The notes beneath the pieces are model-generated. The model was not told the origin of the DNA. It did not search any database and was given only the letters and a program-made list of their open reading frames with translations. From assembly GCA_028285625.1 (NCBI GenBank), contig JANQOX010000026.1, positions 17,825 to 81,824 of the forward strand: DNA of 64,000 nucleotides, read 5' to 3'. Shown here piece after piece: positions 29,726-59,745 of this stretch. Position numbers and translations under genes: made by a program. Source of the stretch: Myxococcota bacterium. GTDB lineage: Bacteria; Myxococcota_A; UBA9160; UBA6930. Within the stretch, counting starts at the first letter, position 1. The number at the start of each line of letters is the position of its first letter.

Positions 29726-29950
29726 ACCGGGCGACCTCGGGGGGCCCCATGCACGGCAGCGGCCCTCGATGGCGGTACGGGTGCCGCAGAGCGTCACTCT
29801 TTCTTCCACGCGGGGCACGAACCCGTTAGCATCGGTGTGCGTGGCCGTCCGGAGGCCTTCGTCCGCCGGCGCGTCGCCCATACCGGCCGCCCACACTGGA
29901 CGGACGGGCCGCTCGTAGCTGCAGCTCACGCGCTGCGCGGATGAACCCAG

Positions 29951-32900
29951 ATGCTCAAGCTCCCCCTCGGTCGTACCGCCTGGTTCGGTCCCGTCCTGCT
30001 CACCGCCTCGATCCTGCTTGCCGCGCCCGAGGCCGTCCGCGCAATGGGCTGCAACATCGAGCCCTTCCCCGACAAGCCGCAGCGCGCGCAGTCGAGCCTG
30101 GGCGAGGCCGGCAACGGCCTGGTCGACCGCCGCATGGCGGGGCCTGGCGACTGGGTGACGCTGATCGCCGACCTCGGCTGCAAGCCCACCACGCCGAAGT
30201 TCCGGACCACCGACACCTATCGGCTCGAAGTGCTCGCCCAGGGCGGAAGCTTCGTCGAGGTGCCCGTCGACCAGTCCACCGTGCAGCTGCACGAGTGCCC
30301 CACGGGCCAGTCCGAGAACTGTGGGCGCGCGCGCTTCCCGCTGCCGGACCCGGTGGCGGCCCTCGGCATCGAGGTCGCCGGACCGGCGCGCCTGGCCGTC
30401 GATCGCGGCACCACCCGCATCTACAGCGTGGGCCAGCTGGCGGCCCCCGGCACGCAGTGCGACGCCGACAATGCGCCCGCCGACGTGGAGACCGGCGGCT
30501 TCGTCTTCCTGCCGCCCATGAACGTGGTTCAAGAGGGTGCCAACGCCGGCTGGCGACTCGCACTCGACTGGCAGGGGGACATCTGGACGCCCCAGGACAT
30601 GACGGCGCTCGTGGACGACCCGGGTGCGCCCCAGGCGGTCCTCACCGAGAGCCAGTCGCTGAGCATCGACCTCATCCCGACGGACCTTCCGCCGGGTGTC
30701 CCCGCCGGAACCCCGCTCGACTTCGTCGAGATCACCAACGATCGCGGTCAGGTGATTCCGCCCCTCGAAGAGGTCGTCGTGATCGACCCCAGCGCTCCGC
30801 GCAAGGCAATCCTCGGGTCGACCGACGTGCTGCGCTCGGTGCTCGAGCTTCGCCAGCAGGTGACGGTCGAGGACGCCAGCGGCACCTCGATCTCCGTGGA
30901 CTATCCCGTGCCGTTCGCGGCGCTGCGCGTGGGGGCGGGGCCCATCATCGCCCCGGATGCGGTCTCGATCACCAAGATCGGGACGACCGATCTCACCGCA
31001 TTCCGCACCAACGACGGCAACTACGTGGCCGGCGTCGAAGAGACCCCGGCGTTCAACAATGGCGATGGCGACCTCACCGATGCCCTGGCGCAGTACCAGA
31101 GCCTCGAAGTGGGCGCGACGACGCTGGCCACCGGACAGGCCCTGGCGCAGATCTCCGGCTCGCCCCGAACCCCCGCCATCGCGGTGGAGCAGACGCCCGA
31201 CAGCGACATCTTCGCGTTCGTCCAGGGCGGCGTCGCTTCTCGCGAGCAGCTCACGCCGGCGGGCAGCCTCGTCCGCGATGCCGTGCGCGTCTACGACGGC
31301 GCGACCGAACTCACGCCGAACCCACCGCTCTTCTCGATCGTCCCCGAACGGCAGGTGGAGGGCGGCCTGCTGTCCATCGCGGGCGGGACCGTGTTCTCGA
31401 TCGTGAGCGAGCCCGACCTGCTGCCGGACGAACTCGGCCGTGTCACCGACGACACGGCGGCATCGGGCGCGCCGCGCGTCGACGCTGCCGGGGAGCGCGT
31501 GGCGCACGAGAGCCAGTCGGCCGGCGGAGTGCGTCAGATCGTGTTGTCCGACCGCGAGGGCCTGGTTCCGGCCGAGGCCATGAGCCCGGTCGGTGGACCG
31601 CCCGGCGCCTTCGACGCCAAGAACCCTGCGCTGGCCGCGGCGAGCGGCGATACGGTGGCCTTCCAGTCGCGCTCGACCTACGGCCTGCCCATCGGCGGTG
31701 GTAGCGGCGGCGGGGGCACCGTGGTCGTCGAGCAGGGCGTGAACTTCCGCGGTCGCATCAACGCAGACCCGCCCTTCTTCTTTCCCGACGCCTCACTGCT
31801 CTTCGACCTGCTTCCCGGCGAGGACACGCCCGGCCTGGGCGACTGGTCGGGCTGCACGCCCGAGCTGATCGGGCCGTTTCCCACCGGCATCGAGCTGATC
31901 TTCCTCGACGACCCGGGCCTGCAGCAGCAGGGCACCTTCATGGCCTACCTGAGCGCGCCCTACCCGGGCGTGTTCGTGGACGACTGCCACTTCGAGATCC
32001 AGGTGGTCGGCATCTACCAGGCGACCGAGACGCCGCCGGTTCCCGGCACCGTGCTCTCCCTGGCCGGCGACGTCGTGTTCCAGGACCTCGACCCCGCCCT
32101 GCCCGGCACGGTCACGAACCCGCGCTTCGAGAGCACGCTGATCGTCGGCGACCCGGTTCCGGCCGGCCATGAACTCTCGGGCTTCTTCGCACTGCTCGCC
32201 GAGCAGGCGGGCCCGGCCGTGGCCGAGCAGGTGTTCCTCGCCGTCTCGGGCACGCCCGGCGTTTCACTGCTCTCGGCCAATGCAGCCGGTGACCCGGGCG
32301 ATGGCGACTCGGGCAACGCCGAGCTCTCGTCGGATGGCGGCTTCGCCGCATACGACACGGCCAGCACCAACCTGGTCGCCTCGGCGGCCGCACGGTCGGT
32401 CGTGGTCGTACCGCTCGACCCCGACGGCAACGGCGTCCCGGCCGAGCCCGGCACCCTGGCCCCGATCCTCGCGAGCGTCGATGCGGCGGGGGCGCCCCTC
32501 GGTGGCACCAGCTCACGGCCGCGACTCTCGCGAGACGGCCTTTCGCTGGTGTTCCTCACCGACGCGCCTGTGGATGCGAGCGACACGAACGCCTCCACCG
32601 ACGCGGTCTTCGTCGACCTCGACCCCGACGGCAACGGCAGCATCGAGCCCGGCTCGTTCGTCGGCGTGCGCGTCAGCACCGACGCCCTTGGCCAGAACGT
32701 GGCCGGGACCGTCTTCGACGCCGACCTCGGTGGCGATGGCACGCTGGTGGCCTTCTCGGGCGACGGGGCCTACGTGCCGGACGACGGCAACGGGGCCTCG
32801 GACGTCTACCTGCTCGATCTGGCGGACGGAACGCTCGAGCGCATCAGCGTGGATCTCGGGCTCGCCGAGACGAACGGCGCCTCGGACCAGGCGTCGGTCT

Positions 32901-35763: not shown

Positions 35764-37314
35764 ATGTCCTGGTCTCGGGCCCTGGCGGCCGTGGGCGCCT
35801 CGGCGGTGCTGTTCGCGCTCGCGTACCCGCCCGTGTCGCTGCGCCCGCTCGCGTTCGTGGCCCTCGCGCCGTTGTTCGTCGCGTTGCGCACCGGCGGCGC
35901 CTGGCGCGCCGTGCTGCTTGCGGGGATCTGGGCGCAACTCACGTCCTACCTCGTGGGCGATGCGCTTCCCGCGTCGGTCGAGCGCTACTTCGCGCAGCCG
36001 CCGCTCGCGAGCTTCGGGTTCGCCTCGCTCGTCTTCCTGGTCACCGCCAGCATCTACTTCCTGCCGCTCCCGCTGGTCTACCGCCGGCTGGCGCGACGGG
36101 GGCCGGGACCCTGGCTGCCCCTGGGCGTCGCGGCCGCGTGGGCGGCGATCGAACTGGCACGGGCTCGGCTGGCGACGGGGACCGCCTTCTGGGGCGCCCC
36201 CTGGGCGCTGTTCGGCTACTCCCAGGTGGGCTTCGACCCGCTGGTGCAGGTGGCCTCGCTCGGGGGCACCTACCTCGTGAGCTTCGTGCTGGTGGCGCCC
36301 TCGGCCGCGCTCGCCGAGTGGTGGCTGGCGCGGGGCACCGCGGGGGCAAGGCCCGCGCGCACGGCCATCTGGATCTCGTTCGCACCGGCGCTACTCGCGC
36401 TCGTCTACGGCGGTGTCGTACTGCAGCGTGCGGAGCTTCCCGATCCGTCCACCGAGGTCTCGGTGGGGGTGGTGCAGGCCGACGTCCAACTCAACGTACA
36501 ATGGCGGCCCGAGAAGACGGGGCGCAATCTCGACGCCTACCTCGACCAGAGTGCCGAGCTGCTGGCGGGCGGGGACGTCGACGTGGTGGTCTGGTCGGAG
36601 TCGTCCATGAGCTTCCACCTGGACCGCTCACCGGCATTCCTGCGTTCGATTGCGCGCACGCTCTCGCGCGGCGACGCCGAGTTGCTGGCCGGAGGCCCAA
36701 GCGGCGTGGATGGCGAGCCGCCGCGCTACCACAACAGCGTATTCGCCGTATCTCCCGTCGGTGAGATCACCGGGCGCTACGACAAGCAGCGCCTGGTTCC
36801 CTTCGGCGAGTTCGTCCCGCTCCAGCAGCTCGACATCATGCGGAGGCGCTTTGCAGGCACACGCTCGTTCTCGCCGGGCGGCGAGGCGGTGCTGCTGCCC
36901 ACGCGAGCGGGGCCCGCAGGCGTGCTCGTGTGCAACGAGGCCATGCTTCCGAGCATGGCGGGCCTGCGTGCGCGCGCGGGCGCCACCTGGCTGGTCAGCC
37001 CGTCGAACGACTCGTGGATCGCACGCGAGCGATGGGCGCGCATGACCTTCGATCTGGTGTCCATGCGCGCCGTCGAACAGCGGCGCTATCTGGTGCGGGC
37101 GTCGAGCTCCGGTCCCTCCGGCGTGGTCGACCCCTACGGGCGCGTGCTCGCCCGCACGCGCGCGGCCAGCGAAGCCCTGGTCTCGGGGCCGGTACGGCCG
37201 ATGCACGCCCTCTCGGTCTACGGGCGGGTCGGCGACCTGTTCGCGCTGCTTTGCGCGGCCATGGTGGCCATTGCCCTGGTCGCGGTGGGGCGCGCGCCGA
37301 AGCGCGAGACCTAG
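35764..37314 (+). CDS. lnt: apolipoprotein N-acyltransferase
   Basis: ORF 35596..37314 trimmed to ATG 35764. N-terminal TM bundle followed by a CN-hydrolase domain with the E-K-C triad contexts VVWSESS, YDKQRLVPFGEF and VLVCNEAM. Confidence 0.92.
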   Translation: MSWSRALAAVGASAVLFALAYPPVSLRPLAFVALAPLFVALRTGGAWRAVLLAGIWAQLTSYLVGDALPASVERYFAQPPLASFGFASLVFLVTASIYFLPLPLVYRRLARRGPGPWLPLGVAAAWAAIELARARLATGTAFWGAPWALFGYSQVGFDPLVQVASLGGTYLVSFVLVAPSAALAEWWLARGTAGARPARTAIWISFAPALLALVYGGVVLQRAELPDPSTEVSVGVVQADVQLNVQWRPEKTGRNLDAYLDQSAELLAGGDVDVVVWSESSMSFHLDRSPAFLRSIARTLSRGDAELLAGGPSGVDGEPPRYHNSVFAVSPVGEITGRYDKQRLVPFGEFVPLQQLDIMRRRFAGTRSFSPGGEAVLLPTRAGPAGVLVCNEAMLPSMAGLRARAGATWLVSPSNDSWIARERWARMTFDLVSMRAVEQRRYLVRASSSGPSGVVDPYGRVLARTRAASEALVSGPVRPMHALSVYGRVGDLFALLCAAMVAIALVAVGRAPKRET

Positions 37315-38275: not shown

Positions 38276-39423
38276 CCCGAAGCGGTCACCTCGGCCACGC
38301 AACGCGCAACGGCCACCAGGAGCGGCTCGTCGCGATCCTCGACGCCGAGGCGGTTCTTGACGAATCCAAAGGCCATCTGGTGTGCGCGATGGCCGCAGCC
38401 CAGGTGCCCGCCCAGCCCACCCATGCCGAACGAACCGTGGGCATCGGACTGCACACCCAGTGCCCAGGGAGCGCGCTCGCCGAACACCAGATCGACCTCG
38501 TCGCGCTGGACCTCGAGCATGGCGTCAATCGTCGAGGGGGAGACCAGGCGGGTGCCTTCGAGGGCGCCGCCTCCTGCCAGCAGTGCGTGGAAGCGCGCCA
38601 CGCCGCGAGCACTTCCATGGCCGTTGATCGCCGGAACCAGGGCCGCGCGGAAGGCGTCGCCGTTGATGAAGTCGGGATCGACGAGCCCCGGCGGGTTGTC
38701 CCAGGACTCGGCGAGCAGGGGGGTGCGGGTGCGCGCCATCTCGCGCAGCGCGCCGTCGTCGAAGCCGAGCATGTCGGCGCAGCGTGCGCGCAGGCGCGCA
38801 TCGAGCCCGAAGTGGAAGTCGATGCCCAGGGGCGCGGCCACCTCCTCGCGAAAGAACGTACCGAGATCGCGGCCGTCGATCCGGCGCACGACCTCGCCCA
38901 CCAGGTGACCGTAGAAGCGCGCCGACTCGCCGTGGGCCGTTCCCGGTGCGAAGCGCGGCGTCGCCTGCTCGAGCGCCGTGACGATGCGGTCCCAGTCGAG
39001 GACGTCCTCGGCGGCCAACGGCTCGTCCACGGCCGTCACGCCCGCCTGGTGACACAGCACCTGCCGCACGGTGATCGCCTGCTTGCCCTTCGCGGCGAAG
39101 CCCGGCCAGACCGAGGCCACGGGGGCTTCGAGGTCGAGCGCTTCACGATCCACCAATACCATCGCGCAGAAGGCGACCATGGCCTTGCTCACCGAGTACG
39201 GCATGCAGAGCGTGTCGCGACCGAAGGCACGGCTGCGCGCGCCGTCGGCGTGGCCGCCGGCCAGATCCACCACGACGTCGCCCCGGTGCCGGACGCAGAG
39301 CGACGCACCCACTTCGCCGGGCGCCGCGAGCACGTCGTCGAAGGCCCGGGCGACGCGCTCCCAACCGGGCGCGACCTCGCCTTCCACGGCGGCCTTCGCG
39401 GGCGAGGCGCCCTGGGCGGTCAC
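38272..39423 (-). CDS. serine hydrolase, beta-lactamase/esterase (class C-like) family
   Basis: C-terminal 383 codons of tracked ORF 38272..40044. The SxxK motif is YSVSK. ...GWERVARAFDDV... GTG 39423 overlaps the cytochrome c stop (GTGA). GTG 39387 is an alternative start. Confidence 0.85.
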   Translation of the reverse strand: MTAQGASPAKAAVEGEVAPGWERVARAFDDVLAAPGEVGASLCVRHRGDVVVDLAGGHADGARSRAFGRDTLCMPYSVSKAMVAFCAMVLVDREALDLEAPVASVWPGFAAKGKQAITVRQVLCHQAGVTAVDEPLAAEDVLDWDRIVTALEQATPRFAPGTAHGESARFYGHLVGEVVRRIDGRDLGTFFREEVAAPLGIDFHFGLDARLRARCADMLGFDDGALREMARTRTPLLAESWDNPPGLVDPDFINGDAFRAALVPAINGHGSARGVARFHALLAGGGALEGTRLVSPSTIDAMLEVQRDEVDLVFGERAPWALGVQSDAHGSFGMGGLGGHLGCGHRAHQMAFGFVKNRLGVEDRDEPLLVAVARCVAEVTASG

Positions 39424-39875
39424 CGGCGAGGCGCTGCGGGATCGGGGGCCAGGCTGCGGATGTAGGCGATCAGCAGCTCGATCTGCTCGTCGGTGAGCGT
39501 GTCTCCCCACGGCTGCATCTGGCAGATGGTCGGCTCGGCATCCGGTGTGGTCGCGCAGGCTGGCTCGTAGGCACGCACACCGTTCGTGATCACGTTGCGC
39601 AGGTCGGCGTCGGTTCCGGCCTGGCCGTCGTCGTCGGTGTCCCATCGAAACTGCGGTTTCTTGAAGTTCGGCGTGGGAAGCCCCAGCGCCTTGGCCGTCG
39701 GGCCATCGCCGCGCCCCGAGAAGCCGTGGCAACCGAGGCAATAGACCCGGTAGTGCCGCTTGCCGGCGGCCGCGCGAGCCTCGGCGTCGGCCGACCCAGG
39801 CGCCTCCGCATGCGCCGTCAGTCCGAGAGCGAGAGCGATCGTGCACACTGCGAGGTGGTGTCGGCGGCATCTCAT
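39420..39875 (-). CDS. c-type cytochrome, monohaem, secreted
   Basis: 151 aa. Signal peptide ...CTIALALGLTAHA. Haem motif CLGCH. The distal Met candidate lies in ...ICQMQPWGDTLTDEQIELLIAYIRSL. Confidence 0.88.
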   Translation of the reverse strand: MRCRRHHLAVCTIALALGLTAHAEAPGSADAEARAAAGKRHYRVYCLGCHGFSGRGDGPTAKALGLPTPNFKKPQFRWDTDDDGQAGTDADLRNVITNGVRAYEPACATTPDAEPTICQMQPWGDTLTDEQIELLIAYIRSLAPDPAAPRR

Positions 39876-39928
39876 GGCGGTGGGGTATCGTAGCTCGCCG
39901 CCGCAGCCGTGAGCTGGCGGGAGGTGCC

Positions 39929-42040
39929 ATGTCCCAGGTTCCCACGTTCTGTCGCGTCTGCGAGCCCGCCTGCGGGTTGCTGGCGCGGGTGGAGGGCGAG
40001 TCGCTCGTGGGGCTGCGACCCGACCGGGACCATCCCGTCTCCAAGGGCTACGCCTGTCACAAGGGGCTCGCCGGCGTCGAGGTCCACCGCGACCCGGACC
40101 GGCTGGATACGCCCGAGCGACGCGACGCCAACGGCCAGTTCGCCCGCGTGGGCTGGGACGACGCTCTGGCCGAGATCGCGGCGCGGCTGGCGGCCCTTCG
40201 CGATGAGCACGGACCCGAGGCGATCGGCGCCTACATCGGCAACCCGATGGCGTTCAACACCTTCGCGGGGCCCTCGGTCGGGTCGTTCCTCGGCCAGCTC
40301 GGCGTCCGGCGCGTGTACGGATCGGGCACCCAGGATTGCGCCAACAAGTTCGCCGCCGCCGAGGCGGTCTTCGGCACCAGCACGCTCCATCCCGTTCCGG
40401 ACATCGAGCACACCGACCACCTGCTGCTGATCGGCGAGAACCCTCGGGTCTCGCACATGAGCTTCTTCTCGATCGCCGACCCCCTGGGCGAGATCAAGCG
40501 TGCCGTCCGACGCGGCGCCACCGTTCGCTACCTGAACCCCAAGCGCATCGAGTCCGAGGACCGCGGGACCGGCGAGGTGATCCAGCTTCGCCCCGACACC
40601 GACGTGTACGTATTGGCGGCGATGCTGCAGACGATCTTCGAAGAAGGGCTCGAGGACGCCCGCGCACTGGATCGTCACGGTCGCCACGTGGCCGAGCTGC
40701 GCGCGTTCGTGGCCGCCTACGGGCCCGAACGAGTGGCGCCGGTGGTGGGCGTCGAGGCAGCGCGGCTGCGTGAGCTGGCCCGCGACTTTGCCACGGCCCG
40801 CCGCGCGGCGGTCCACATGTCGACCGGCGCCAACATGGGGCGACAGGGCACGTTGGCCTACTGGCTGGTGCAGGTGCTGTCGTTGGCGACCGGCAACCTC
40901 GACCGGGAGGGCGGCAACCTCTACAGCCACGGGTTCTACCCCGCCGCCAAGGCAGGCCGCACCGACCCGGCTCGTCAGTTCTTCGACGGCCCCCACGGTC
41001 GCATGCGCCGCATCCGCGGAAGCCTGCCGGGCAACCTGCTGGCCGACGAGATCCTGGGCGGCACCCCGCGGATCCGGGCACTCGTCGTGATCGCCGGCAA
41101 CCCGGTGCTTTCGATCGGCGGCGAGGCCCGCATGCGCGAGGCGCTCGAGGGCCTCGACCTGCTGGTCTGCCTCGACCTCTATCGCAACGCGACGGGCGAA
41201 CTCGCCGACTTCGCCCTGCCCTGCACCGACGCCTTCGAGCGTCCGGACGTGAATCTCACCGGCCTCGGGATGCAGTACCGCCCGTACGTCCAGTGGACCG
41301 ATGCCGTGGTCCCACCCCGCGCCGAGCGGCGGCCCGAGTGGTGGATTCTGGAGCGGCTACTGCAGGAACTCGACCTGAAGAGCGCCCTCGATGCGGGCCC
41401 CGAGCCCGATCTGTCGGGCCGACTCGCGCACATGCTGCGCTCGCGCGACCTGTCGCTCGACGACCTGCGCGAGAGCGAGCGTGGCGTGGTGTTCGAAGGG
41501 CTCGAGCCGGGGCGCTTCTTCGAGGACTGGATCCAGACGGAGGATCGGCGGGTGGATTGCCGCCCGACCCTCTTCCTGGAGGAGGGCGCAATCGACCGCT
41601 GCGAAGCGATCTTCGAAGAGCTGCTGGCAGAGGACCCGTCTGCACTCAAGCTGATCACGCTGCGCACCCCGTCGATGCACAACAGCTGGTACCACAACGT
41701 CGAGAAGCTGAAGCGACCCGGTCGGCTGTCGAACCCGCTGCACATGAACCCGGAAGACGCCCGGTCGCGAGGCCTGGCCGAGGGCGACCTCGTGACCTGC
41801 AAGAGCGCCTGGGGAGAGGTCGAGGCGGAGCTCCGGCTCGACGACACGCTGCGCGCGGGGACGGTCGCCATGACCCATGGATGGGGCCATCAGCGCGCGC
41901 CGAGCATGCGCGTGGCACAGCGCCATCCGGGTACCAACGCCAACCGCCTGCTACCCATCGGGCCGGACAGTTTCGAGCCGCTCAGCAATCAGGCCTTCAT
42001 GACGGGCATCCCGATCTCGGTCGCCCACAGCGACGGCTAG
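39929..42040 (+). CDS. molybdopterin-dependent oxidoreductase (bis-MGD/DMSO reductase superfamily), cytoplasmic
   Basis: 703 aa. N-terminal 4Fe-4S motif CRVCEPACG...ACHKG. ...GSGTQDCANKF... No Tat signal. Confidence 0.88.
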   Translation: MSQVPTFCRVCEPACGLLARVEGESLVGLRPDRDHPVSKGYACHKGLAGVEVHRDPDRLDTPERRDANGQFARVGWDDALAEIAARLAALRDEHGPEAIGAYIGNPMAFNTFAGPSVGSFLGQLGVRRVYGSGTQDCANKFAAAEAVFGTSTLHPVPDIEHTDHLLLIGENPRVSHMSFFSIADPLGEIKRAVRRGATVRYLNPKRIESEDRGTGEVIQLRPDTDVYVLAAMLQTIFEEGLEDARALDRHGRHVAELRAFVAAYGPERVAPVVGVEAARLRELARDFATARRAAVHMSTGANMGRQGTLAYWLVQVLSLATGNLDREGGNLYSHGFYPAAKAGRTDPARQFFDGPHGRMRRIRGSLPGNLLADEILGGTPRIRALVVIAGNPVLSIGGEARMREALEGLDLLVCLDLYRNATGELADFALPCTDAFERPDVNLTGLGMQYRPYVQWTDAVVPPRAERRPEWWILERLLQELDLKSALDAGPEPDLSGRLAHMLRSRDLSLDDLRESERGVVFEGLEPGRFFEDWIQTEDRRVDCRPTLFLEEGAIDRCEAIFEELLAEDPSALKLITLRTPSMHNSWYHNVEKLKRPGRLSNPLHMNPEDARSRGLAEGDLVTCKSAWGEVEAELRLDDTLRAGTVAMTHGWGHQRAPSMRVAQRHPGTNANRLLPIGPDSFEPLSNQAFMTGIPISVAHSDG

Positions 42041-50835: not shown

Positions 50836-53175
50836 CTAGAGGTCCTTGTAGCGGCCGATGTCGATGAGTCCGGCCTCGACGGGGTTCTGACGCGCGAGCG
50901 CGTCGTCGAACCAGTCCATCAGGCTCCAGAAGCCCGGGCTGCTGCGGCGCACGCCCCAACGCTCGACGACGCGGGTGAGTCCCTCCGCATCCTCGACCGC
51001 ACCCAGGACTTCGGCGAACCGCAGCACCTCGTTCAGGGGAACGTCGAAGGCGAAGTTGGGGTAACTGCCCAGCGCGCCGCGCACGACGGTGAGCGTGTCG
51101 TTCGCCGGGACGCGACGGTTGGCCTCGAAGAACAGGAAGGCCACGTTGTCGTGGGCCGCATCGTGCACCAGCGAGTACTGGAGCGGCTCCTCCATGTCAC
51201 CGCCCACCACGCGGACCCAGACCAGTTCGGGAAGGGTCGCGACGAACGGAGCGCGCACTCCCGCGAGACGGCGCAACGCCGCGTCGGCCGTGCGTTCCAG
51301 GTTCGATGCGCCGGACCGCTGGCACGGGGGCTGGTCACAGCGGTTCAGCAGATCGGGCGGCCCGGCAACCTCACGCGACCGCGCCTCGACCTGGGCGAGC
51401 AGCTCGGCCACCACGTCGTCCGTCTCGAAGCGAACCTGGGTACCGTGGGGCGTGAACCGTTCGCGATCCAGGTAGACGTCGAGCTGGTCTTCGGCGCCGC
51501 GATACCACGACCGGAAGATCGCGTCGCGCTGCTCCCGGGGAACGAAGAGCAGGAAGAGGTCCTCCGCCTGCATGCGCAGGTGGTCCATGTAGAGTCGCGT
51601 CGCCACCTGGTGGGTGACGTTTCCGAAGACGTCGAAGCCCGCCACCAGGTCGTAGTAGATGCGCTCGAAGATGGGGTAGTCGAGCACCCAGGCCGTCTGG
51701 GGCGGTGCACCGTGGAACCCGTGGACCACGGTGGCGTTGTCGAAGTGGCGAAACACCGTGAGCAGGGCATCGCGATCGTGCCCATCTCCATCCCAGATGG
51801 CCTCGAGCGGCGGGCCGTCCTTCTCCGGGTCGATCTCGTCGTAGACGCGCTCGCGCAGCTCGAGATAGCGCTCCTGCTTTTCGTCGTAGCGCGTGAGGAT
51901 GTCGAGGCGGGGGCGTTGGCCCCCTGCCTCGGCCGGCATCCGCAGCAGGCCACGCGCTTCGTCGAGGAAGCCGGGATCGGTGACCGAGAGGTCGTAGTCG
52001 GGGTCGACGAACGTGACCCAGAAGCGGTCTCGAATGACGTTCACCGCGACCTGCCCCCGGCAGACCGGGCCCCGGATGAAGGTCATCACGAAGTAGCGCG
52101 CGTCGTCGAGCAGGTACTGGTAGCGCGCACGCGACGGAATGGCGGCGAAGGTGGTGAAGGGATTGGCCGACGTGACCGGGTCGTAGTCGGGGAGTTCTGC
52201 CAGCTCCCAGTCGGGCGCGAAGAAGAGCTCTTTCAGGCGCGCCATGCGCTCGGGGCCGATCGGGTAGACGATGTGGGTCTTGTGGAGGATCGTCGCGTCG
52301 ATGGGCCGCAGCCGATACCAGAAGTTCGCGACGCCCGGCGCGTCGAAGGGCCGCCGGGTCGGCAGCACGCGAATCGGCTCTCCGGGCGGCGTCGCCGAGC
52401 GCACCACCTCGAAGTAGGGGCCCTGCGGCGCACTCGTGAACGTCAGGTGCGCGAGGAACCAGTGCTCGTAGAGGTACCGCGCCACGAGTCGCTCGCGATT
52501 CGAGGGCCCGTTGAGAAAGGCCTCCCAATCCTCGACCTGCCGGGCGAGAGCGGCGGGGACCTCCATGTCCTCCCAGTCCGGCGCCCCCTGGGCGATCCAA
52601 CGCGAGAGCGTCTCGAGCTCGTCGGGAGCGAGCGGCGCGGTGCCGTAGGGCATGCCGCCCATGGGTCGATCCGCCGCGTAGCGGGCGAACTCGTCGTCGG
52701 CCGGGCAGCTGAGCGCGCGGTTGATGTCGAGGTCGACGTCGGGCATGCGGGCGTTGGGCGCCGGCGGGGCGGCGCGTCCGAGGGCCAACATGCGCAGCAT
52801 CAGCGAGTCACTGGGCGAGCCTTCGGCCAGCGGCAGGACGGGATGGAACCCCAGCTCGCGCCAGCCCGCCTCGGTGGTCGCATCGTGGGACAGGCGTGTG
52901 AGCGGCGCCTCGAGCAGCCGGCTCGACTGGTAGACGGGCTGCTTCGAGGCCCCGCGCAACAGGCCCTCGTGGGACGACAGGTTCAGCTGACAGGGAGCGT
53001 CGTAGCAGCCGTGGCAGACCACGCAGCGAGACTCGAGCACCGCCCGCGCCGCAGCCGGCCGCAACGGCGCGACCGAGTCGAGCGGAAGGGGCTCGGGCTC
53101 CTGGGCCGCACCCCGGCAGCCGGCCATCGCCAGGAGGATCGAGCAGAACCAGAACGCGCGGAGGGTCTTGGACAT
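50836..53175 (-). CDS. cti: fatty acid cis/trans isomerase
   Basis: 779 aa. Lipoprotein signal LLAMAGC. N-terminal haem-c motif in CVVCHGCYDAPCQLNLSS. The length and the remaining sequence fit the Cti family. Confidence 0.88.
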   Translation of the reverse strand: MSKTLRAFWFCSILLAMAGCRGAAQEPEPLPLDSVAPLRPAAARAVLESRCVVCHGCYDAPCQLNLSSHEGLLRGASKQPVYQSSRLLEAPLTRLSHDATTEAGWRELGFHPVLPLAEGSPSDSLMLRMLALGRAAPPAPNARMPDVDLDINRALSCPADDEFARYAADRPMGGMPYGTAPLAPDELETLSRWIAQGAPDWEDMEVPAALARQVEDWEAFLNGPSNRERLVARYLYEHWFLAHLTFTSAPQGPYFEVVRSATPPGEPIRVLPTRRPFDAPGVANFWYRLRPIDATILHKTHIVYPIGPERMARLKELFFAPDWELAELPDYDPVTSANPFTTFAAIPSRARYQYLLDDARYFVMTFIRGPVCRGQVAVNVIRDRFWVTFVDPDYDLSVTDPGFLDEARGLLRMPAEAGGQRPRLDILTRYDEKQERYLELRERVYDEIDPEKDGPPLEAIWDGDGHDRDALLTVFRHFDNATVVHGFHGAPPQTAWVLDYPIFERIYYDLVAGFDVFGNVTHQVATRLYMDHLRMQAEDLFLLFVPREQRDAIFRSWYRGAEDQLDVYLDRERFTPHGTQVRFETDDVVAELLAQVEARSREVAGPPDLLNRCDQPPCQRSGASNLERTADAALRRLAGVRAPFVATLPELVWVRVVGGDMEEPLQYSLVHDAAHDNVAFLFFEANRRVPANDTLTVVRGALGSYPNFAFDVPLNEVLRFAEVLGAVEDAEGLTRVVERWGVRRSSPGFWSLMDWFDDALARQNPVEAGLIDIGRYKDL

Positions 53176-53210
53176 CGGCCGGGGAGCTTCGCGCCCCCAT
53201 GCTGCGTGCG

Positions 53211-55187
53211 CTAGTGCCGGGTGTCGCCGGCGGGAGGCAGGGCCGGATCCACGGAGAGCGCGGCCTCCGGCACGACGGAAGGCGCAGCCTCCGGCAGAGC
53301 GGGAGGCGCAGCCTCCGCCGCGGCCTGGGACCGGGCGGCATCGAATGCCGCAACCTGCTCGCGCAGGATCCGCTTCAGCTCCGCGATGGTCTCGGGGTGG
53401 GCCTGCATGGAGTGATGGCTGGGGACGATGACTTCGGAGGCGGCCTCGGACAGGGTCGCACTCTCATACTTCACCACGCCGTCGTCCGCGTCCTCGAGCC
53501 CGCCGTCGGGGTCGGGAACGGCAATGATCGAGTGCGCGGTCACACCCTCGGCCAACGGCCGCGAAGCAAGCGTGTCCATGAAGAGGCTCCCGGGTCGCAT
53601 GTTCTCGATGCTGGTCGGAACCTGGCGCATGCGCGAGCGCAGCTTGGCCTCGGAATCGCCCGAGATGAGATCGACCGTGGCCTGGGTGGCTCGCACGGGC
53701 AGGCTGATCAAGCGCCCGGCGAGCGCCGCGACACCGTCCGTGGCCCGGAAGCTCCCGCGGTGGGGTGTCGCCATGAACACCACCCGATCGGCGAACGGCA
53801 ACGCCTCGAAGAAGAACTGATCCTCGAGCCACTTCTGGGTCGCGGGGTCGAGGTCGAGACTCTCGACCGGCTCCTCGGAGATGGCATCCCAGAACGCCGT
53901 CTCCGAGTCCGTGACCTGGAGGCGCACGAGCAGCCCTCCTTGGCTGTGACCGACCAACACCATGTGCTGGAGCGCAGCATCCTTGGCCTCGGGATCGAGC
54001 TCCCGCCTCGCTCCCTGTAGTGCGGCACGGAGCCTCCCGGCCGAGAGCAGGATGGGATTGCCGGTCGCGTAGACGAACAGCCAGGGAACGACGCGGTCGC
54101 GCAGCACCGGATCCCCGGTGAGCTCGTTGACGACCTCCGCCCAGCGCCCGGGGCTCGATGCCGTGCCGTGGACCAACACCACCGGAATCTGCCCGGGCCG
54201 GTACGGGTGGATCATGAACAGCCCGTCCGAGTCCTCGGACATGACCGTCACGCGGTCCTGGAACAGGCTCTCGATCTCGATGGACCACACCTCCGACTGC
54301 CCGACCCCCAGTGCGAACGCGACGCTCGGCTCGTACTCCAGCGGCACCTCCTCCCCGTGGATCTCGGTGGTCGAGACCTCCTCCATGGCGTAGAGCTCGA
54401 GACGCCCCGAGAGCTCGCCCCTCTGGAGGCCCGCCAGGGCATCGTCGAAGCGGAGCAGGACCGTGACGGGGACGTGGATCGCCTTGGGGATGCGGGCGGC
54501 CTCCCTCGCGGCGGACCCCGGCAAGCGCTCGAGCCCGGCAATGAACGGTGCGCCTATCCCCGGGCGGCGGTATCGATTGCGGATGCCGCGGATCTCGTAG
54601 TCGTCGGCGGGAACCAGATCGACCAGGCGATGGCCCGCCCAGACGGGATCCTTCGGGGACGTCACTACGAGGGTGCCGAATGAGAGCGTCACCGTGCGCG
54701 AGGAGAGGTCGGCCACCTCGGCCTCGGCTTCCCTCAGGCCTCGTGCGAGACCCCGGTTGTAGAGATCCGCGGCCACCCGGGTCCGAGGGTCGAGCACCGA
54801 AGGGCGATCGGCCGGGTCCTCGGGAAACAGGAAGGCCCACGCATAGACGGCTGCCGCTGCGTACGCGCTCGCGCCGCCCTCGCGGTCGCCGTGCAGGAAG
54901 GAAAGCTCGGCCAGCGCGTACAACACGTCCGGCGGATGCGGCGCCGTGGGGAGCAGGGCATGCAGCGCGTCGAGGCTGTGAACGAGCTGGCGGTCGTTTT
55001 CGGCGCTCACCCCGACGGCCTGGAGCACCAGCTCGGTGTCGTGGCTGAGCTCGCCCGCTGCCAGGACGTTGGCGGCGAGCTGGGCGCGGACCTTGCGCGG
55101 ATCCTGACGCTCGACGCCCACCGGCGATGCGCACGCGAGCGCGCACGCCACCAGGCAGGCGAGCGCGAGTGCGGGGCTCCGACGCAT
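53211..55187 (-). CDS. alpha/beta hydrolase lipoprotein (lipase-like)
   Basis: ORF 53211..55289 trimmed to ATG 55187 (MRRSPALALACLVACALAC). PVVLVHGTASSPGRW and nucleophile elbow VGHSQGG. Ala/Pro-rich repetitive C-terminus. Confidence 0.8.
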   Translation of the reverse strand: MRRSPALALACLVACALACASPVGVERQDPRKVRAQLAANVLAAGELSHDTELVLQAVGVSAENDRQLVHSLDALHALLPTAPHPPDVLYALAELSFLHGDREGGASAYAAAAVYAWAFLFPEDPADRPSVLDPRTRVAADLYNRGLARGLREAEAEVADLSSRTVTLSFGTLVVTSPKDPVWAGHRLVDLVPADDYEIRGIRNRYRRPGIGAPFIAGLERLPGSAAREAARIPKAIHVPVTVLLRFDDALAGLQRGELSGRLELYAMEEVSTTEIHGEEVPLEYEPSVAFALGVGQSEVWSIEIESLFQDRVTVMSEDSDGLFMIHPYRPGQIPVVLVHGTASSPGRWAEVVNELTGDPVLRDRVVPWLFVYATGNPILLSAGRLRAALQGARRELDPEAKDAALQHMVLVGHSQGGLLVRLQVTDSETAFWDAISEEPVESLDLDPATQKWLEDQFFFEALPFADRVVFMATPHRGSFRATDGVAALAGRLISLPVRATQATVDLISGDSEAKLRSRMRQVPTSIENMRPGSLFMDTLASRPLAEGVTAHSIIAVPDPDGGLEDADDGVVKYESATLSEAASEVIVPSHHSMQAHPETIAELKRILREQVAAFDAARSQAAAEAAPPALPEAAPSVVPEAALSVDPALPPAGDTRH

Positions 55188-55297
55188 GGCGCGGATCCTA
55201 ACGTCGGAACCCCTCGTCGCCCAGACGGCCTGCGAGTGCCACGATGCGCGGCGCCAGGCCTGCAGTGCGGCCGCACCCGACCCGCGCAAGACGACCT

Positions 55298-56053
55298 ATG
55301 CTCCTCGTCGTGAAGCTCCAGGCCCTTTCCATCCTGTTCTGGCTCTTCCTCGGCGTGACCTCGATCGCCCTGTTCCCGATCGCCGTCGTGATCTGGGCGG
55401 TGACGCTGCCCTTCGACCGGCGCAAGGTGCTGCTCCACCGGTTCACCTGCTTCTGGGCCTCGCTCTACACCTGGTTCAATCCGGCCTGGCCGGTGGCGAT
55501 CGAAGGCCGCGAGCACATCGACCCGCGCGAGACCTACGTCATGGTGGCGAACCACCTCTCGCTACTCGACATCCTGGTGCTGTTCCGGCTGTTCAACCAC
55601 TACAAGTGGATCTCCAAGATCGAGAACTTCCGGATCCCTTTCATCGGCTGGAACATGCGGCTGAACGGCTACGTCGAGCTTCGCCGTGGAGACCGCGAGA
55701 GCGTGCTGCAGATGCTGGAGACCTCGCGCGGCGTGCTCGAGAGCGGAAGCTCGATCATGATGTTCCCCGAAGGCACGCGTTCGCCCACGGGCGAGATGCG
55801 CGACTTCAAGCCGGGCGCCTTCCAGCTGGCCATCGAGTGCAAACGACCGCTCCTGCCGATCGCCTTGCAGGGCACCGCAGACGCCCTGCCCAAGCGCGGC
55901 TTCGTCCTCCAGGGCCGGCACCCGATCTCGGTGACCGTGCTGCCGCCGATCGCGCCAGAGGCGTTCGCCGGGCAGACGCCGGAGGCCCTGGCGGCCGAGA
56001 CGCGCGCACTGCTGCTCGGCGTGGTCGGCAAACCCGAGACTCCCTCGAGCTAG
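55298..56053 (+). CDS. plsC: 1-acyl-sn-glycerol-3-phosphate (lysophospholipid) acyltransferase
   Basis: ORF 55244..56053 trimmed to ATG 55298. N-terminal TM helix. The HX4D motif is NHLSLLD; also FPEGTRS. Confidence 0.88.
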   Translation: MLLVVKLQALSILFWLFLGVTSIALFPIAVVIWAVTLPFDRRKVLLHRFTCFWASLYTWFNPAWPVAIEGREHIDPRETYVMVANHLSLLDILVLFRLFNHYKWISKIENFRIPFIGWNMRLNGYVELRRGDRESVLQMLETSRGVLESGSSIMMFPEGTRSPTGEMRDFKPGAFQLAIECKRPLLPIALQGTADALPKRGFVLQGRHPISVTVLPPIAPEAFAGQTPEALAAETRALLLGVVGKPETPSS

Positions 56054-58155
56054 GGCGACGCCGCGTCCGGCTTCTCACCGGCCCCGCCCGGGGCGCGCGA
56101 CAAGACGTAGGCCTGGATCCGGCGAACGTCGTCGGCGTCGAGCACGTCGCCGAAGGCCGGCATGCCGAGCGCCGCGCGTCGTCCCTCGAGGACGATTTCG
56201 GCGAACTCCGCGTGCACCGCGGCACGGGCGAACCGCAGGTCCGGGAGCACGCCGCCTCCCACCGCCCCCACGCCGTGACAGACCGCGCACCACTGGTGGT
56301 AGCGGTCGCTGCCGCGTCCCACGTCCTCGGCACTCGCATCGATGGCCACGTCGGCCCTCTGACCGGGTCGCGGCGGCGGGGCCTCGGGCATCGACACGTC
56401 GCCGTCGAGGGCGAACACGAGCAGGTGGCCCGCCGAACGCACCCCTGCGGCCGCGGCGGCGTCGCCGGCCGCCACCGCGAACGAGCCGCCCCACCCGGCC
56501 ATCACGGCGACGTACTGGGTCTCGCCCACGCGATAGCTGATCGGGGCCGCGACGATGCCCGTCGGCACGGTCACCTCGAACCGCTTCTCTCCGTCCGTGG
56601 CGCGATAGGCCACGAAGCGTCCATCTGCCGTGCCCTGGAACACGAGGTTGCCCGCCGTCGCCAGGGTGCCGCCGTTGCCCGCGACCGCGTACGGCGCGCG
56701 CCAGACCTCGCGGCCCGCCACCGGATCCCAGGCGAGCAGATGACCCGACGTGCCCGCGGCCGCAGCGCCAGGCGGAGGGAGGCTCCGGTACATCTTCATG
56801 TCGAGCCCGGTGTTGTGGGCGCGCGGAACGAAAGCGAAGTCCGGGTCGACGGTGTAGAGGCCCGGCAACTCCTGGGCGGGCACGTACACCAGACCCGTGT
56901 CGGGACTGAACGACATCGGGTGCCAGTTGTGTGCGCCCGCGCTGCCCGGCTTGATCAGCACGGGGCGGTCGGCGGCGCGAACCCCCGGGGCCTCCACGGG
57001 GCGACCCGTCGCCAGGTCCACGTGCGACGCCCACGTCACCTCGGCGAACGGTTCGGCCGAGAGCAGTTCGCCCGTGGCCCGGTCGAGCACGTAGAAGAAC
57101 CCGTTCTTCGGCGCCTGCAGCAGCACCGCGCGCGAACGGCCCGCGATCTCGAGGTCGGCCAGCAGCAGGTGCTGCGTCGCGGTGAAGTCCCACGCGTCGC
57201 CGGGGGTCGTCTGGTAGTACCAGACCAGCGCGCCATCGTCCTCGCGGAGCGCGAGGATCGAACTCAGATAGAGGTTGTCGCCGCGATCTTCGCTGCGCAG
57301 CACGCGGCTCCAAGGGCCCCCGTTGCCGGTACCCACGTACACGAGCCCGAGCTCGGGATCATGGGCGATGGCGTCCCACGCGGTGCCCCCTCCACCGGTC
57401 TCCCAGTAGCGACCGTGCCAGGTACGGGCCGCACGCGCGATCGCCGGGGTCTCGTGGCCCTTGGCCGGGTCACCCGGAACCGTGTAGGTGCGCCAGAGCC
57501 GCTCGCCGGTCTCGGCGTCGTAGGCCGAGACGTAGCCGCGCACGCCCAGATCCGCGCCGCTGTTGCCGATCACCACACGGCCCGAGACGACCCGCGGTGC
57601 GCCGGTGATGGTGTAGGGCTGCTCGGCGGGCGTGGTCTGCGCGCTCCACAGCAGCGCCCCGGTGCCGGCGTCGAGAGCCTGCAGCCGACCGTCGAGAGTC
57701 GCCACGAACACGCGGCCCGCATCGACGGCCACCCCGCGGTTCACCACGTCGCAACACAGGATGCGCGCGATCTCGCGGGGCACCTGCGGATCGTGCTGCC
57801 AGAGCTTTGCCCCCGAAGCCGCATCGAAGGCATGGACGGTGCTCCAGGTTCCGGTGGTGTAGAGCACGCCGTCCACGACGATGGGCGTCGCCTCCAGCCC
57901 CCGGCGTGTCCCGAAGTCGTGCGTCCAGGCCAGCCCCAGGCGCCCGGCGTTGTGCTCGTCGATCTGCGCGAGCGGGCTGAAGCGTTGCTCGAAGGCCCCC
58001 TGCCCGTGGCGCGGCCAGTCTCCGGCACCGGCGGCGGGCGCCGCGTCGCGGCAAGCGGGCCCGCCCCAGGCGAGCAGGCACGCGAAGAGAGCCGCGAACG
58101 GGCCTGCGGCCCGCGCCACCGCAGCTCGTCGGGACGCGCCCACGCGTGACTCCAT
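56050..58155 (-). CDS. PQQ-dependent quinohaemoprotein alcohol dehydrogenase
   Basis: C-terminal 701 codons of tracked ORF 56050..58758, from ATG 58155. Propeller W-motifs, vicinal CC (ILCCDVVNRG), and a C-terminal cytochrome c domain with CAVCH. Confidence 0.9.
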   Translation of the reverse strand: MESRVGASRRAAVARAAGPFAALFACLLAWGGPACRDAAPAAGAGDWPRHGQGAFEQRFSPLAQIDEHNAGRLGLAWTHDFGTRRGLEATPIVVDGVLYTTGTWSTVHAFDAASGAKLWQHDPQVPREIARILCCDVVNRGVAVDAGRVFVATLDGRLQALDAGTGALLWSAQTTPAEQPYTITGAPRVVSGRVVIGNSGADLGVRGYVSAYDAETGERLWRTYTVPGDPAKGHETPAIARAARTWHGRYWETGGGGTAWDAIAHDPELGLVYVGTGNGGPWSRVLRSEDRGDNLYLSSILALREDDGALVWYYQTTPGDAWDFTATQHLLLADLEIAGRSRAVLLQAPKNGFFYVLDRATGELLSAEPFAEVTWASHVDLATGRPVEAPGVRAADRPVLIKPGSAGAHNWHPMSFSPDTGLVYVPAQELPGLYTVDPDFAFVPRAHNTGLDMKMYRSLPPPGAAAAGTSGHLLAWDPVAGREVWRAPYAVAGNGGTLATAGNLVFQGTADGRFVAYRATDGEKRFEVTVPTGIVAAPISYRVGETQYVAVMAGWGGSFAVAAGDAAAAAGVRSAGHLLVFALDGDVSMPEAPPPRPGQRADVAIDASAEDVGRGSDRYHQWCAVCHGVGAVGGGVLPDLRFARAAVHAEFAEIVLEGRRAALGMPAFGDVLDADDVRRIQAYVLSRAPGGAGEKPDAASP

Positions 58156-58206
58156 GGCCGGCGCAGCGTAGCGGAGGAACGCGGCGCGGTGGTCTACGCT
58201 CTGGGC

Positions 58207-58731
58207 ATGCGCACACTCGCCCTCGCTGCAGTCCTGTTCCTGGCCGCACCCGCTCTCGGCGCCGGACCCGAAGTCGGCGAAGCCGCGCCGGAGTTCTCCC
58301 TGCCGGGCTCGGACGGGCGCGCCCATGCGCTGTCGGACCACACCGGCAAGCGCGGCGTGGTGCTCGCCTGGTTCCCGAAGGCGTTCACCCCCGGCTGAAC
58401 GGCCGAGCTCCAGGCGCTGCGTGACAGCGCCGAAGCCCTCGCCGCCTACGACGTGGCCGTGTACATGGTGAGCCTCGACGACCCGGACAAGAACCGCGCC
58501 TTTGCCGAGTCGCTGGATGCCCGGCACGTGGTGCTCTCCGACCCGGAGGGCGACGTGGCCCGCGCATACGGTGTGACGCGCCTCGGCGGTCTGTATGCGC
58601 GACGCGTCACGTTCTACGTGGACGCAGAGGGCACGGTCCGCGCCGTCGACGAGGACGTCCGCCCGGAGAGCGCGGGAAGCGACATGGCTCGCAAGCTCGG
58701 CGAGCTGGGATTCCCCAAGAAGGCGCCGTAG
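58207..58731 (+). CDS. secreted peroxiredoxin (AhpC/TSA-Bcp family), predicted selenoprotein (Sec encoded by TGA 58396-58398)
   Basis: Tracked ORFs 58189..58398 and 58453..58731 are in the same frame. Joined they read MRTLALAAVLFLAAPALGA...GEAAPEFSLPGSDGRAHALSDHTGKRGVVLAWFPKAFTPG-TGA-TAELQALRDSAEALAAYDVAVYMVSLDDPDKNRAFAE...RVTFYVDAEGTV... The TGA sits at the peroxidatic-Cys position. Confidence 0.8.
58407..58436 (+). promoter_or_regulatory. candidate bacterial SECIS hairpin
   Basis: Begins 8 nt after TGA 58396-58398. Perfect 7-bp upper stem: GGCGCTG (58413-58419) pairs with CAGCGCC (58425-58431). The loop is CGUGA. A lower stem pairs 58407-58411 with 58432-58436 (one mismatch, one bulge). 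Confidence 0.55.
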
Positions 58732-58773: not shown

Positions 58774-59745
58774 TCAGGTGCCGGCGAGGCGGGCCACGAC
58801 CGGCGCGAACGGTTCGAGCGACGTGTCGGGCACCGTCACGTAGCTGATGCCCAGGCTCTCGCGACGCGCGCGCAGCAGGTCACACACCTCGTCCACTTCG
58901 CCGAACAACCCATGCGGGTGCGCGAGCATCGCCTCCTTGTCGAGCCCCAGTGCCCGGCCCATGCCTTCGGCCGCGGCCTCGGCACCCGACCCCATGAACG
59001 TGAAGTAGGCGCCGATCTCGAGTTCGGGGTCGCGATCGCCCGCGGCTTCGCGCACCCAGGCGACCTTTCGTGCGGTGCGCTCGGCCGTCGACCCGCCCAC
59101 GCCGTCCGCACCGAGTACGCCCGAGCGGTTGTTGAAGTTCAGGCTCACCACGTCGCCCTCGCGGGCCGCCAGCTCGAGCACCCGGCGCGAGCCACCGCCG
59201 ATCATGATCGGAGGGTGCGGGCGCTGCACGGGCGCCGGCACGGGCTCGAAGTCGCGCGCGCGGATGTGCGACCCCTCGAAGGCCATGGGCATTCCGGCGA
59301 ACCAGGCCTTGAGAAAGGCCACGGTCTCGGCGAGCCGGTCGATGCGGGTCGTCGCCTCGTCGAAGGCGATGCCGAGCGCCACGTACTCGGCGCGGAGCCA
59401 GCCGGCCCCCACCCCGAGCTCGAGGCGGCCATCGCTCAGCAGGTCGAGGGTCGCGGCCTCCTTGGCCAGGACTGCGGGGTGCCGGTAGTCCTGGCAGAAC
59501 ACGCGACAGCCCACACGCAGGGTCTCGGTCGCCTCGGCAGCCATCGCCATGGCCGGCACGGCGGCCAGCTCCTGCACCGGGTGGTTGGTGGGATCGAGGG
59601 CCGGACCGGCCCCGATCACGTGGTCGGCGAGATGCAGCGCGGAATAGCCCAGGCCCTCCGCCCGCTTGGCGCGCTCGCGCCAGGCGTCCGCCGAGGGTGC
59701 CGAGAACGATTGGACGGCGAAGCGGAAGGGACGCGATTCGGGCAT
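58774..59745 (-). CDS. luciferase-like monooxygenase (LLM) family oxidoreductase, probably the F420-dependent subgroup
   Basis: C-terminal 323 codons of tracked ORF 58774..60318, from ATG 59745 after GAGGAG. MPESRPFRFAVQ..., ...GYSALHLADH..., ...LELGVGAGW... Confidence 0.82.
   Translation of the reverse strand: MPESRPFRFAVQSFSAPSADAWRERAKRAEGLGYSALHLADHVIGAGPALDPTNHPVQELAAVPAMAMAAEATETLRVGCRVFCQDYRHPAVLAKEAATLDLLSDGRLELGVGAGWLRAEYVALGIAFDEATTRIDRLAETVAFLKAWFAGMPMAFEGSHIRARDFEPVPAPVQRPHPPIMIGGGSRRVLELAAREGDVVSLNFNNRSGVLGADGVGGSTAERTARKVAWVREAAGDRDPELEIGAYFTFMGSGAEAAAEGMGRALGLDKEAMLAHPHGLFGEVDEVCDLLRARRESLGISYVTVPDTSLEPFAPVVARLAGT

Follow-up and report, generated by a model that had tools for sequence, protein, structure and literature searches.

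Selenocysteine (Sec)-containing peroxiredoxins are well established: they form the selenoprotein family "Peroxiredoxin (Prx)," carry a TxxU motif, and belong to COG1225 (Bcp) and PF00578 (PMC1088965, PMC1794560, PMC5029168, PMC9312934, PMC13188914). The family has been known for about 20 years; a 2016 census counted 91 genes in 78 organisms (PMC5029168), and three Sec-Prx copies occur in the myxobacterium Anaeromyxobacter dehalogenans (PMC1794560). Here, we studied a gene at 58207..58731 of a 64-kb stretch of Myxococcota DNA (contig JANQOX010000026.1; the whole stretch is hereafter "the window"), in which a UGA codon stands where a peroxiredoxin would have its catalytic cysteine (Cys). Judged by its sequence, the gene fits the definition of the Prx (TxxU) family, including the Sec/Cys pair, TGA-containing orthologues with open frames, and a bacterial Sec insertion sequence (bSECIS). 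An initial annotation of this DNA had implied that such a gene would be new, an implication that has to be withdrawn because TxxU Sec-peroxiredoxins have long been known (PMC1088965, PMC1794560, PMC5029168).

The window protein shares with the described family its domain, the motif T61-P-G-U64 with Sec in place of the peroxidatic Cys, widespread Cys homologues with frequent Sec/Cys interconversion, and a SECIS located just downstream within the coding region; the occurrence of several copies per genome also has a precedent in a myxobacterium. However, the surveys of the family cited above mention no signal peptide or export, whereas the clade of the window protein, which we recognize by the motif W-F-P-K-A-F-T-x-G-U-T, has a leader. 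This clade further differs from the family at large in its own fixed SECIS geometry (21 nucleotides [nt], loop CGKGN), in being covered by no NCBIfam model, and in that its Myxococcota-type members are without a resolving Cys. A targeted search of the open-access literature found nothing explicit on the export of Sec-peroxiredoxins. In bacteria, DsbA-like proteins, thiol:disulfide interchange proteins, and the substrate-binding protein SaoB are typically located in the envelope. All of these are listed as selenoprotein families in a review that does not discuss their localization, and an exported selenoprotein would thus be no novelty in principle.

Among individual proteins, PrxU of Eubacterium (Peptoclostridium) acidaminophilum is an experimentally shown, thioredoxin-dependent Sec-peroxiredoxin (Sohling et al. 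2001, as cited in PMC13188914). It resembles the window protein in having Sec at the peroxidatic position but is cytoplasmic, comes from an anaerobic Firmicute, and belongs to another Prx subfamily, the window protein scoring below the equivalog cutoff of the PrxU model (NF040737; 40.7 vs. 270 bits). Another known counterpart is PprX (CC1673) of Caulobacter crescentus, an exported BCP/PrxQ protein with a 20-amino-acid (aa) signal sequence that is kept reduced by the membrane reductase ScsB via the thioredoxin-like protein TlpA (PMC3322552). The two are likened by features, not by orthology: both are BCP/PrxQ proteins with a PxxxTxxC-type site and a conserved Arg, the N-terminal signal sequence of PprX has a predicted counterpart of similar length (about 20 aa) here, and envelope peroxide scavenging is the role we propose for the window protein as well. 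Unlike PprX, which uses Cys and a resolving Cys, the window protein would have Sec and has no Cys, and no ScsB, TlpA, or DsbD gene is linked to its gene.

The reading that we favor, to which we assign a probability of roughly 85%, is that the gene encodes an exported, Cys-free "1-Sec" BCP/PrxQ peroxiredoxin, in which UGA codon 64 is decoded as Sec with the help of a hairpin SECIS, catalysis takes place in the envelope, and an external thiol recycles the enzyme. The features on which this reading draws are collected in Table 1.

Table 1. Features of the proposed selenoprotein gene and of its paralogue in the window
Feature	Position	Strand	Description	Basis
Selenoprotein coding sequence (proposed)	58207..58731	+	174 codons, UGA codon 64 read as Sec, stop TAG 58729-58731	
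Predicted Sec-type signal peptide	58207..58263	+	MRTLALAAVLFLAAPALGA, residues 1-19	manual inference
Active-site motif with peroxidatic position	58375..58398	+	P57-K-A-F-T61-P-G-U64 (PxxxTxxU)	18-homologue alignment
In-frame UGA, proposed Sec codon	58396..58398	+	residue 64	translation, orthologue comparison
Bacterial SECIS-type hairpin	58413..58431	+	stem GGCGCUG/CAGCGCC, 7 bp; loop CGUGA, 58420-58424	folding, orthologue comparison
Conserved catalytic Arg codon	58603..58605	+	R133 in ARRVTFYVD	alignment A1; 3drn
Leaderless (cytoplasmic-type) peroxiredoxin	46534..46965	+	in-frame TGA 46642-46644	Pfam AhpC-TSA 7.8e-31

The gene appears in the window as two open reading frames (ORFs), 58189..58398 and 58453..58731, which the initial annotation had joined across TGA 58396-58398. 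The sequence, the ORF list, and the translation all confirm that the two share one frame and are parted by that TGA. The joined product of 174 aa reads ...GKRGVVLAWFPKAFTPG-U-TAELQALRDS...RVTFYVDAEGTV...ELGFPKKAP. Translation could alternatively begin at GTG 58189, which lies 11 nt 3' of a GGAGG at 58173-58177, but orthologues, whose leaders open with M-K/R, favor ATG 58207; the signal peptide is compatible with either start. The GC content of third codon positions (GC3) is 0.97 before and 0.94 after the TGA, a coding signature on both sides. When every TGA in the window (71% GC) was scanned for such a signature, defined as high GC at first (GC1), low GC at second (GC2), and high GC at third codon positions, only the TGAs at 58396 and 46642 had it on both sides.

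That the joined product would be a full-length AhpC/TSA-Bcp protein, as had been claimed, is borne out by its match to Pfam AhpC-TSA (PF00578; residues 23-146, E 2.9e-31, profile positions 1-123 of 124), with a further match to Redoxin (E 1.4e-20), and by the nearest solved structures. By sequence, these are archaeal BCPs (3drn, 1.8e-20; 2ywn, 3.3e-17), and 3hjp is another BCP among the best matches; the 1-Cys AhpE from M. tuberculosis comes after the archaeal BCPs. Among NCBIfam models, Bcp and PrxQ come closest. When 5.8 billion proteins were searched, 1118 homologues were obtained at E<=1e-10; the top ones, which JGI names "peroxiredoxin Q/BCP," share 60-70% identity and have lengths of 173-180 aa. 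By these profile and homologue matches, the gene is one for a BCP/PrxQ-type peroxiredoxin, with peroxidase activity as the predicted function.

BCP/PrxQ proteins typically, although not universally, have a resolving Cys (atypical 2-Cys mechanism). The window product contains no Cys in its 174 aa and has Leu at position +4 from the catalytic residue, so its mechanism would be of the 1-Cys type, with Sec in place of Cys (1-Sec). When 18 full-length homologues were aligned (alignment A1), the TGA column fell on the peroxidatic Cys of FTxGCT, or of PxxxTxxC as defined in PMC3322552 and PMC13188914, with Cys at column 64 in all 18, and the placement of the TGA at the catalytic Cys position thus stands. 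P57, T61, G63, R133, and T135 are invariant in this alignment, and the counterpart of R133 in the BCP structure 3drn is the Arg in "ARITFVID."

Strong evidence comes from orthologues. A scan of GTDB species genomes yielded 80 orthologous loci, in 79 of which the catalytic motif could be located; the source genome was not among them, and the best match (74% identity) was a Myxococcales metagenome-assembled genome (MAG). The catalytic codon is TGA in 51/79 loci and TGC or TGT in the other 28. All Myxococcota/"delta" MAGs carry TGA (L001-L012, L014, and L020), every one of the closest genomic relatives (L001-L012, <=74% identity) included, and TGA is also found in many Acidobacteriota (Vicinamibacterales and others) and in Binatia, Sumerlaeota, and Acidimicrobiia MAGs. 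Cys codons occur in Planctomycetota and Halopseudomonas orthologues. In each of the 51 TGA orthologues, the frame remains open for 105-117 codons beyond the TGA (median 108) and ends in a shared C-terminus, ...ELG[FV]xK[RK]; they average 66% identity to the window protein before the TGA and 50% after it, in line with the conservation past the TGA that had been noted earlier. Myxococcota-type members read U-T-x-E-L and have no resolving Cys, whereas Acidobacteriota-type members read U-T-A-E-C. Because these 51 orthologues have open and conserved 3' frames, a pseudogene, a real stop, or a sequencing error is excluded for the family and, by extension, very unlikely for the window gene itself.

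A second line of evidence is the hairpin downstream from the UGA. In the E. coli fdhF/fdnG-type SECIS and the bSECISearch consensus, a stem-loop lies in the coding region right after the UGA, and published bSECIS criteria specify a loop of 3-9 nt, a stem of 4-16 bp, a G in the first two loop positions, and a UGA-to-loop distance of 16-37 nt, with a minimum free energy (MFE) of <= -7.5 kcal/mol (PMC13188914, Fig. 2). The window hairpin, which is encoded by A-L-R-D-S-A codons and forms part of the MFE fold, agrees with all four bSECIS criteria: it has a 5-nt loop (G at position 2, then U), a stem of 7 bp that begins 14 nt after the UGA, a loop 21 nt after the UGA, and an energy of -12.1 kcal/mol. 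It thus resembles the consensus in its small apical loop, in the G followed by U/G near the 5' side, and in its spacing, but shows no sequence similarity to the E. coli elements and conserves a short 7-bp upper stem only. The same four criteria are satisfied in 45/52 TGA but only 9/28 Cys orthologues, and the 21-nt spacing is preserved in 46 of the 52 TGA sequences.

We counted base pairs explicitly in an ungapped, 45-column alignment of the 52 TGA sequences (alignment A2), on which RNAalifold returned no structure. The seven pairs are formed in 93.6% of cells compared with 78.6% in column shuffles, and none of 500 shuffles was as high. Both-sided changes occur in five of the seven pairs (46 cells), for instance, at the closing pair, where 25 sequences have C-G and 22 have G-C, and the covariation score is 0.352 versus 0.110 for shuffled columns; controls with slid partners paired in only 23-71%. 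The hairpin is also specific to TGA forms: at least six of seven pairs are present in 51/52 TGA versus 10/28 Cys-codon sequences (Fisher p 6e-10), and the loop motif CGKGN is present in 52/52 versus 2/28. In four Vicinamibacterales MAGs (L070, L072, L073, and L080), the 5' arm GUCGCUG pairs with a 3' arm CAGCGAC one codon downstream (A2 columns 18-39) around an 8-nt loop (CGUGAUUC, CGUGAGCA, or CGUGAGUA), so that the structure is kept although its register shifts. The codons of the element spell (A/S)-L-R-(D/E/A)-S-(A/G), and because the RNA element is encoded there, the peptide L-R-D/E-S does not vary among Sec forms but is unconstrained in Cys forms.

The perfect 7-bp stem and CGUGA loop of the initial annotation therefore hold, but the lower stem by which it had extended them does not. 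We rejected the lower stem of the window MFE fold as a part of the element because it is not conserved as a whole: pairing is seen in 14-41% of orthologues for its outer helix and in a variable 35-100% for its inner helix, but in 86-100% for the upper stem. From its conserved structure, we infer that the hairpin acts as a bacterial SECIS. TGA in 51/79 loci, the open frames, the covariation (0/500), and the agreement with bSECIS criteria strongly support the earlier proposal of a Sec-containing AhpC/TSA-Bcp peroxiredoxin with hairpin-aided UGA decoding. A separate observation concerns an Acidobacteriota MAG (CAYLHQ010000013.1; L035:10112-10156), in which a TGC codon is followed by a complete TGA-type hairpin, GUCGCUC-CGUGA-GAGCGGC, encoding L-R-E-S; this looks like a "fossil SECIS" left after a recent Sec-to-Cys conversion.

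The window holds a second candidate gene for a Sec-peroxiredoxin, with an in-frame TGA, at 46534..46965, in the same FTPG-TGA-T context (39% identity, E 2e-27). Its metagenome relatives (35-50% identical) have 76 Cys codons and one TGA at the catalytic position; because they are nearly all Cys, we regard this gene as a member of a separate leaderless BCP lineage in which the TGA is an independent occurrence. The argument that the same replacement in two genes speaks against error or pseudogenization is thus valid, and finding two TGAs at the same catalytic codon within one 64-kb stretch supports the view that they are no accident. What could not be upheld is the claim that the paralogue has the same hairpin spacing. 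Its best bSECIS-type hairpin lies 24 nt from the UGA with only -3.8 kcal/mol, compared with 21 nt and -12.1 kcal/mol for the window hairpin, and a SECIS geometry shared by both paralogues was rejected accordingly. The extended downstream fold of the paralogue is a stable long stem with -28.7 kcal/mol (z -2.95), but it agrees poorly with the simple bSECIS criteria.

The leader makes export plausible. Judged by eye, MRTLALAAVLFLAAPALGA has one basic residue (Arg) in its n-region and a hydrophobic core (Kyte-Doolittle maximum 2.94 over 10 residues), followed by A-x-A-like sites (APA, residues 14-16, and LGA, residues 17-19), and it is without a lipobox Cys or a twin-Arg. In 115/117 homologues, the GxxAPxF motif is preceded by a hydrophobic-core leader that is 15 aa or longer, and the leaders of orthologues vary in sequence but retain the n-h-c layout; the cytosolic BCP structures 3drn and 2ywn start at the equivalent of about residue 20, the beginning of the mature domain, without a leader. 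A gene for apolipoprotein N-acyltransferase (Lnt) at about 35.6-37.3 kb of the window, together with the Myxococcota affinity, indicates a diderm cell, and the destination would then be the periplasm.

We propose the following sequence of events. The hairpin would recruit SelB.GTP.Sec-tRNASec to the ribosome, where UGA 64 would be decoded as Sec, as in described bacterial systems (PMC13188914, PMC9312934). With its 19-residue leader, the pre-protein would pass the Sec translocon of a Myxococcota-like, diderm cell, and the leader would then be cleaved off. Once in the envelope, U64 would act as a selenolate that P57, T61, and R133 hold in position; as peroxiredoxin chemistry suggests, it would reduce H2O2 or organic hydroperoxides and be converted to selenenic acid. 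Because the protein contains no Cys, no internal selenenylsulfide could form and an external thiol would be required, which would regenerate U64 directly. The likeliest donor, a guess by analogy with Caulobacter PprX, might be a thioredoxin-like protein of the periplasm that is itself kept reduced by a membrane reductase of the DsbD/ScsB/CcdA type. More speculatively, and from general selenoenzyme chemistry, Sec could guard a slowly recycled oxidized intermediate from irreversible over-oxidation while envelope reductant is scarce.

Several results weigh against this reading. Taken alone, the hairpin is not unusual for DNA of 71% GC: the fold of 60 nt has a z of -1.45, and 15/200 shuffles equal it, so its significance comes from the orthologue comparison and not from folding energy alone. 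Rfam gave no match to the hairpin, either at the gathering threshold over the whole window or at a permissive threshold over 58350-58480. The protein misses the NCBIfam equivalog cutoffs of both Bcp (PRK09437; 79.1 vs. 140 bits) and PrxQ (NF053650; 63.8 vs. 260), and is therefore related to E. coli Bcp and Deinococcus PrxQ at the subfamily level, without being an equivalog of either. No selA, selB, selD, or tRNA-Sec was found in the 64-kb window (Pfam on about 40 ORFs, Rfam, and a tRNA search), ARAGORN found no tRNA-Sec in any orthologous locus, and tblastn gave no SelD or SelA match in about 2 Mb of orthologue flanks, a weak test given unverified E. coli query sequences and short flanks. These searches covered the window and the orthologue flanks, and the Sec decoding machinery of the source organism is thus a prediction. 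Likewise, the search for a nearby periplasmic reductant partner that the initial annotation had recommended came back empty, with no thioredoxin-, DsbD-, ScsB-, or CcdA-like gene within 5 kb in 81 loci and none in the window; such genes may lie elsewhere in the genome, unlinked. Finally, the leader, judged by eye as it was, may be an uncleaved membrane anchor instead of a cleaved signal peptide.

This last point belongs to the alternative that survives best, namely, a Sec-peroxiredoxin that is not soluble in the periplasm but is retained by an uncleaved N-terminal membrane anchor or secreted onward to the outer membrane or the extracellular space. As a cleavage site, the c-region PALGA is no more than moderate; Myxococcota secrete many proteins; and there is no linked periplasmic reductant gene. 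However, the leader is short (19 aa) with an A-x-A type end, the variable orthologue leaders hold their n-h-c layout as cleaved signal peptides do, and the exported BCP/PrxQ protein PprX has a comparable signal sequence of 20 aa (PMC3322552). We consider this localization improbable.

Far less credible is that the TGA is a genuine stop, i.e., a nonsense mutation in a former Cys-peroxiredoxin that leaves only a fragment of 63 residues. Gene callers do treat the codon as a stop: a second copy of the locus, on a 6-kb Logan contig from run SRR20820731 that begins at 58452, 3' of the TGA, was recorded by its gene caller only as a 92-aa post-TGA fragment, and the window has no sel genes. A decayed gene is difficult to reconcile with TGA in 51/79 orthologues across phyla, with frames that in all 51 run on for another 105-117 codons to a conserved C-terminus, with a coding-typical GC3 of 0.94 after the TGA, with a covarying hairpin specific to TGA forms, and with a diverged paralogue that has the identical substitution.

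We give an equally slight chance to decoding of the UGA as something other than Sec, whether by a reassigned code (TGA as Trp or Gly) or by near-cognate read-through (Trp or Cys). Such decoding could be suggested by the public proteins P0028, P0088, and P0093, which have Trp at the catalytic position. This Trp is due to another code table: the DNA of P0028 (L162:530-1075, JGI 3300060480) has TGA at the catalytic codon under table 11, so its gene caller used a table in which TGA is Trp, and some Sec forms therefore sit in databases as W-containing "peroxiredoxins." In the window, TGA is an ordinary stop elsewhere, ending at least 11 ORFs with a coding signature, several of them with full-length Pfam matches, and a global reassignment of the code is thereby excluded. 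Further, Trp as the peroxidatic residue would be catalytically dead, and a position-specific hairpin is the hallmark of Sec insertion (PMC13188914). Least likely of all is a sequencing or assembly error in a true TGC or TGT. A one-base difference would suffice for it, Cys forms exist at up to 70% identity, and the independent Logan contig does not cover the TGA. It is opposed by TGA in all of the closest genomic relatives (L001-L012), by the full TGA-specific hairpin with a CGUGA loop in the window (a loop motif seen in only 2/28 Cys forms), and by the second independent error that the paralogue would require at the same codon.

If the gene is an exported Sec-peroxiredoxin, as we think, its clade may tentatively be viewed as a subfamily of envelope selenoperoxidases in its own right, one without an explicit description so far, although we put this at well short of an even chance. 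Such a subfamily would be mostly Sec in soil and sediment Myxococcota and Acidobacteriota (51/79), with its own SECIS, Cys-free 1-Sec as well as U-x3-C forms, annotations that are split or contain Trp, and possibly an unconventional reductant. Standard gene callers split or truncate the gene or give Trp, and no NCBIfam model exists for the clade; thus, peroxide defense and selenium use would be under-counted in abundant soil lineages, here Myxococcota, Vicinamibacterales, and other Acidobacteriota. To recover such genes, a covariance model could be built from the SECIS alignment of 52 sequences. A Cys-free 1-Sec peroxiredoxin in the oxidizing envelope would be a tidy case for asking why selenium is used instead of sulfur, one possible reason being that it resists over-oxidation where reductant is scarce, and raises the question of which donor reduces envelope peroxidases. 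The current understanding of Sec decoding and of peroxiredoxins is unchanged.

The peroxiredoxin gene is monocistronic. It lies 51 nt from a divergent gene for a pyrroloquinoline quinone (PQQ)-dependent quinohemoprotein dehydrogenase (56050-58155, -), which has a PQQ propeller, a C-terminal cytochrome c domain, and its own N-terminal hydrophobic leader, and it converges on a luciferase-like monooxygenase gene (58774-59745, -). None of the window's eight neighbor genes adjoins prx orthologues elsewhere, and we rejected the PQQ dehydrogenase as a functional partner because the pairing is conserved in no orthologous locus. Flanking genes were clustered with the prx footprint masked, since long antisense ORFs over prx confounded unmasked clustering; the best recurring family occurs in 12/81 loci and is unrelated.

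Other observations in the window include a tRNA-Glu(CTC) call by ARAGORN at 36836-36908 (+), which lies inside the Lnt reading frame, has no match to the Rfam tRNA model even at E<=1, and is probably a false positive. No Pfam match (E<=1e-3 or 1e-4) was obtained for four long ORFs that have a good coding signature: 29945-34993 (+), 16661-19288 (+), 53214-55295 (-), and 1625-3616 (+), with 1683, 876, 694, and 664 codons from stop to stop, respectively. A small ORF (39420-39875, -), whose C-terminus resembles a c-type cytochrome, adjoins a molybdopterin oxidoreductase gene (39665-42037, +; Fe4S4, Molybdopterin, and Molydop_binding domains) that has no in-frame TGA; if the enzyme is formate-dehydrogenase-like, it would be a Cys or other non-Sec form. 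Fatty acid cis/trans isomerase is best known from Pseudomonas and Vibrio, and here a gene for it (50839-53463, -; Pfam CTI, E 1.4e-253) lies in a Myxococcota-like context of 71% GC. The combination of Pfam 6PF2K and His_Phos_1 is typical of eukaryotes and uncommon in bacteria; it is present at 44403-45701 (-), in a bifunctional 6-phosphofructo-2-kinase/fructose-2,6-bisphosphatase-type protein.

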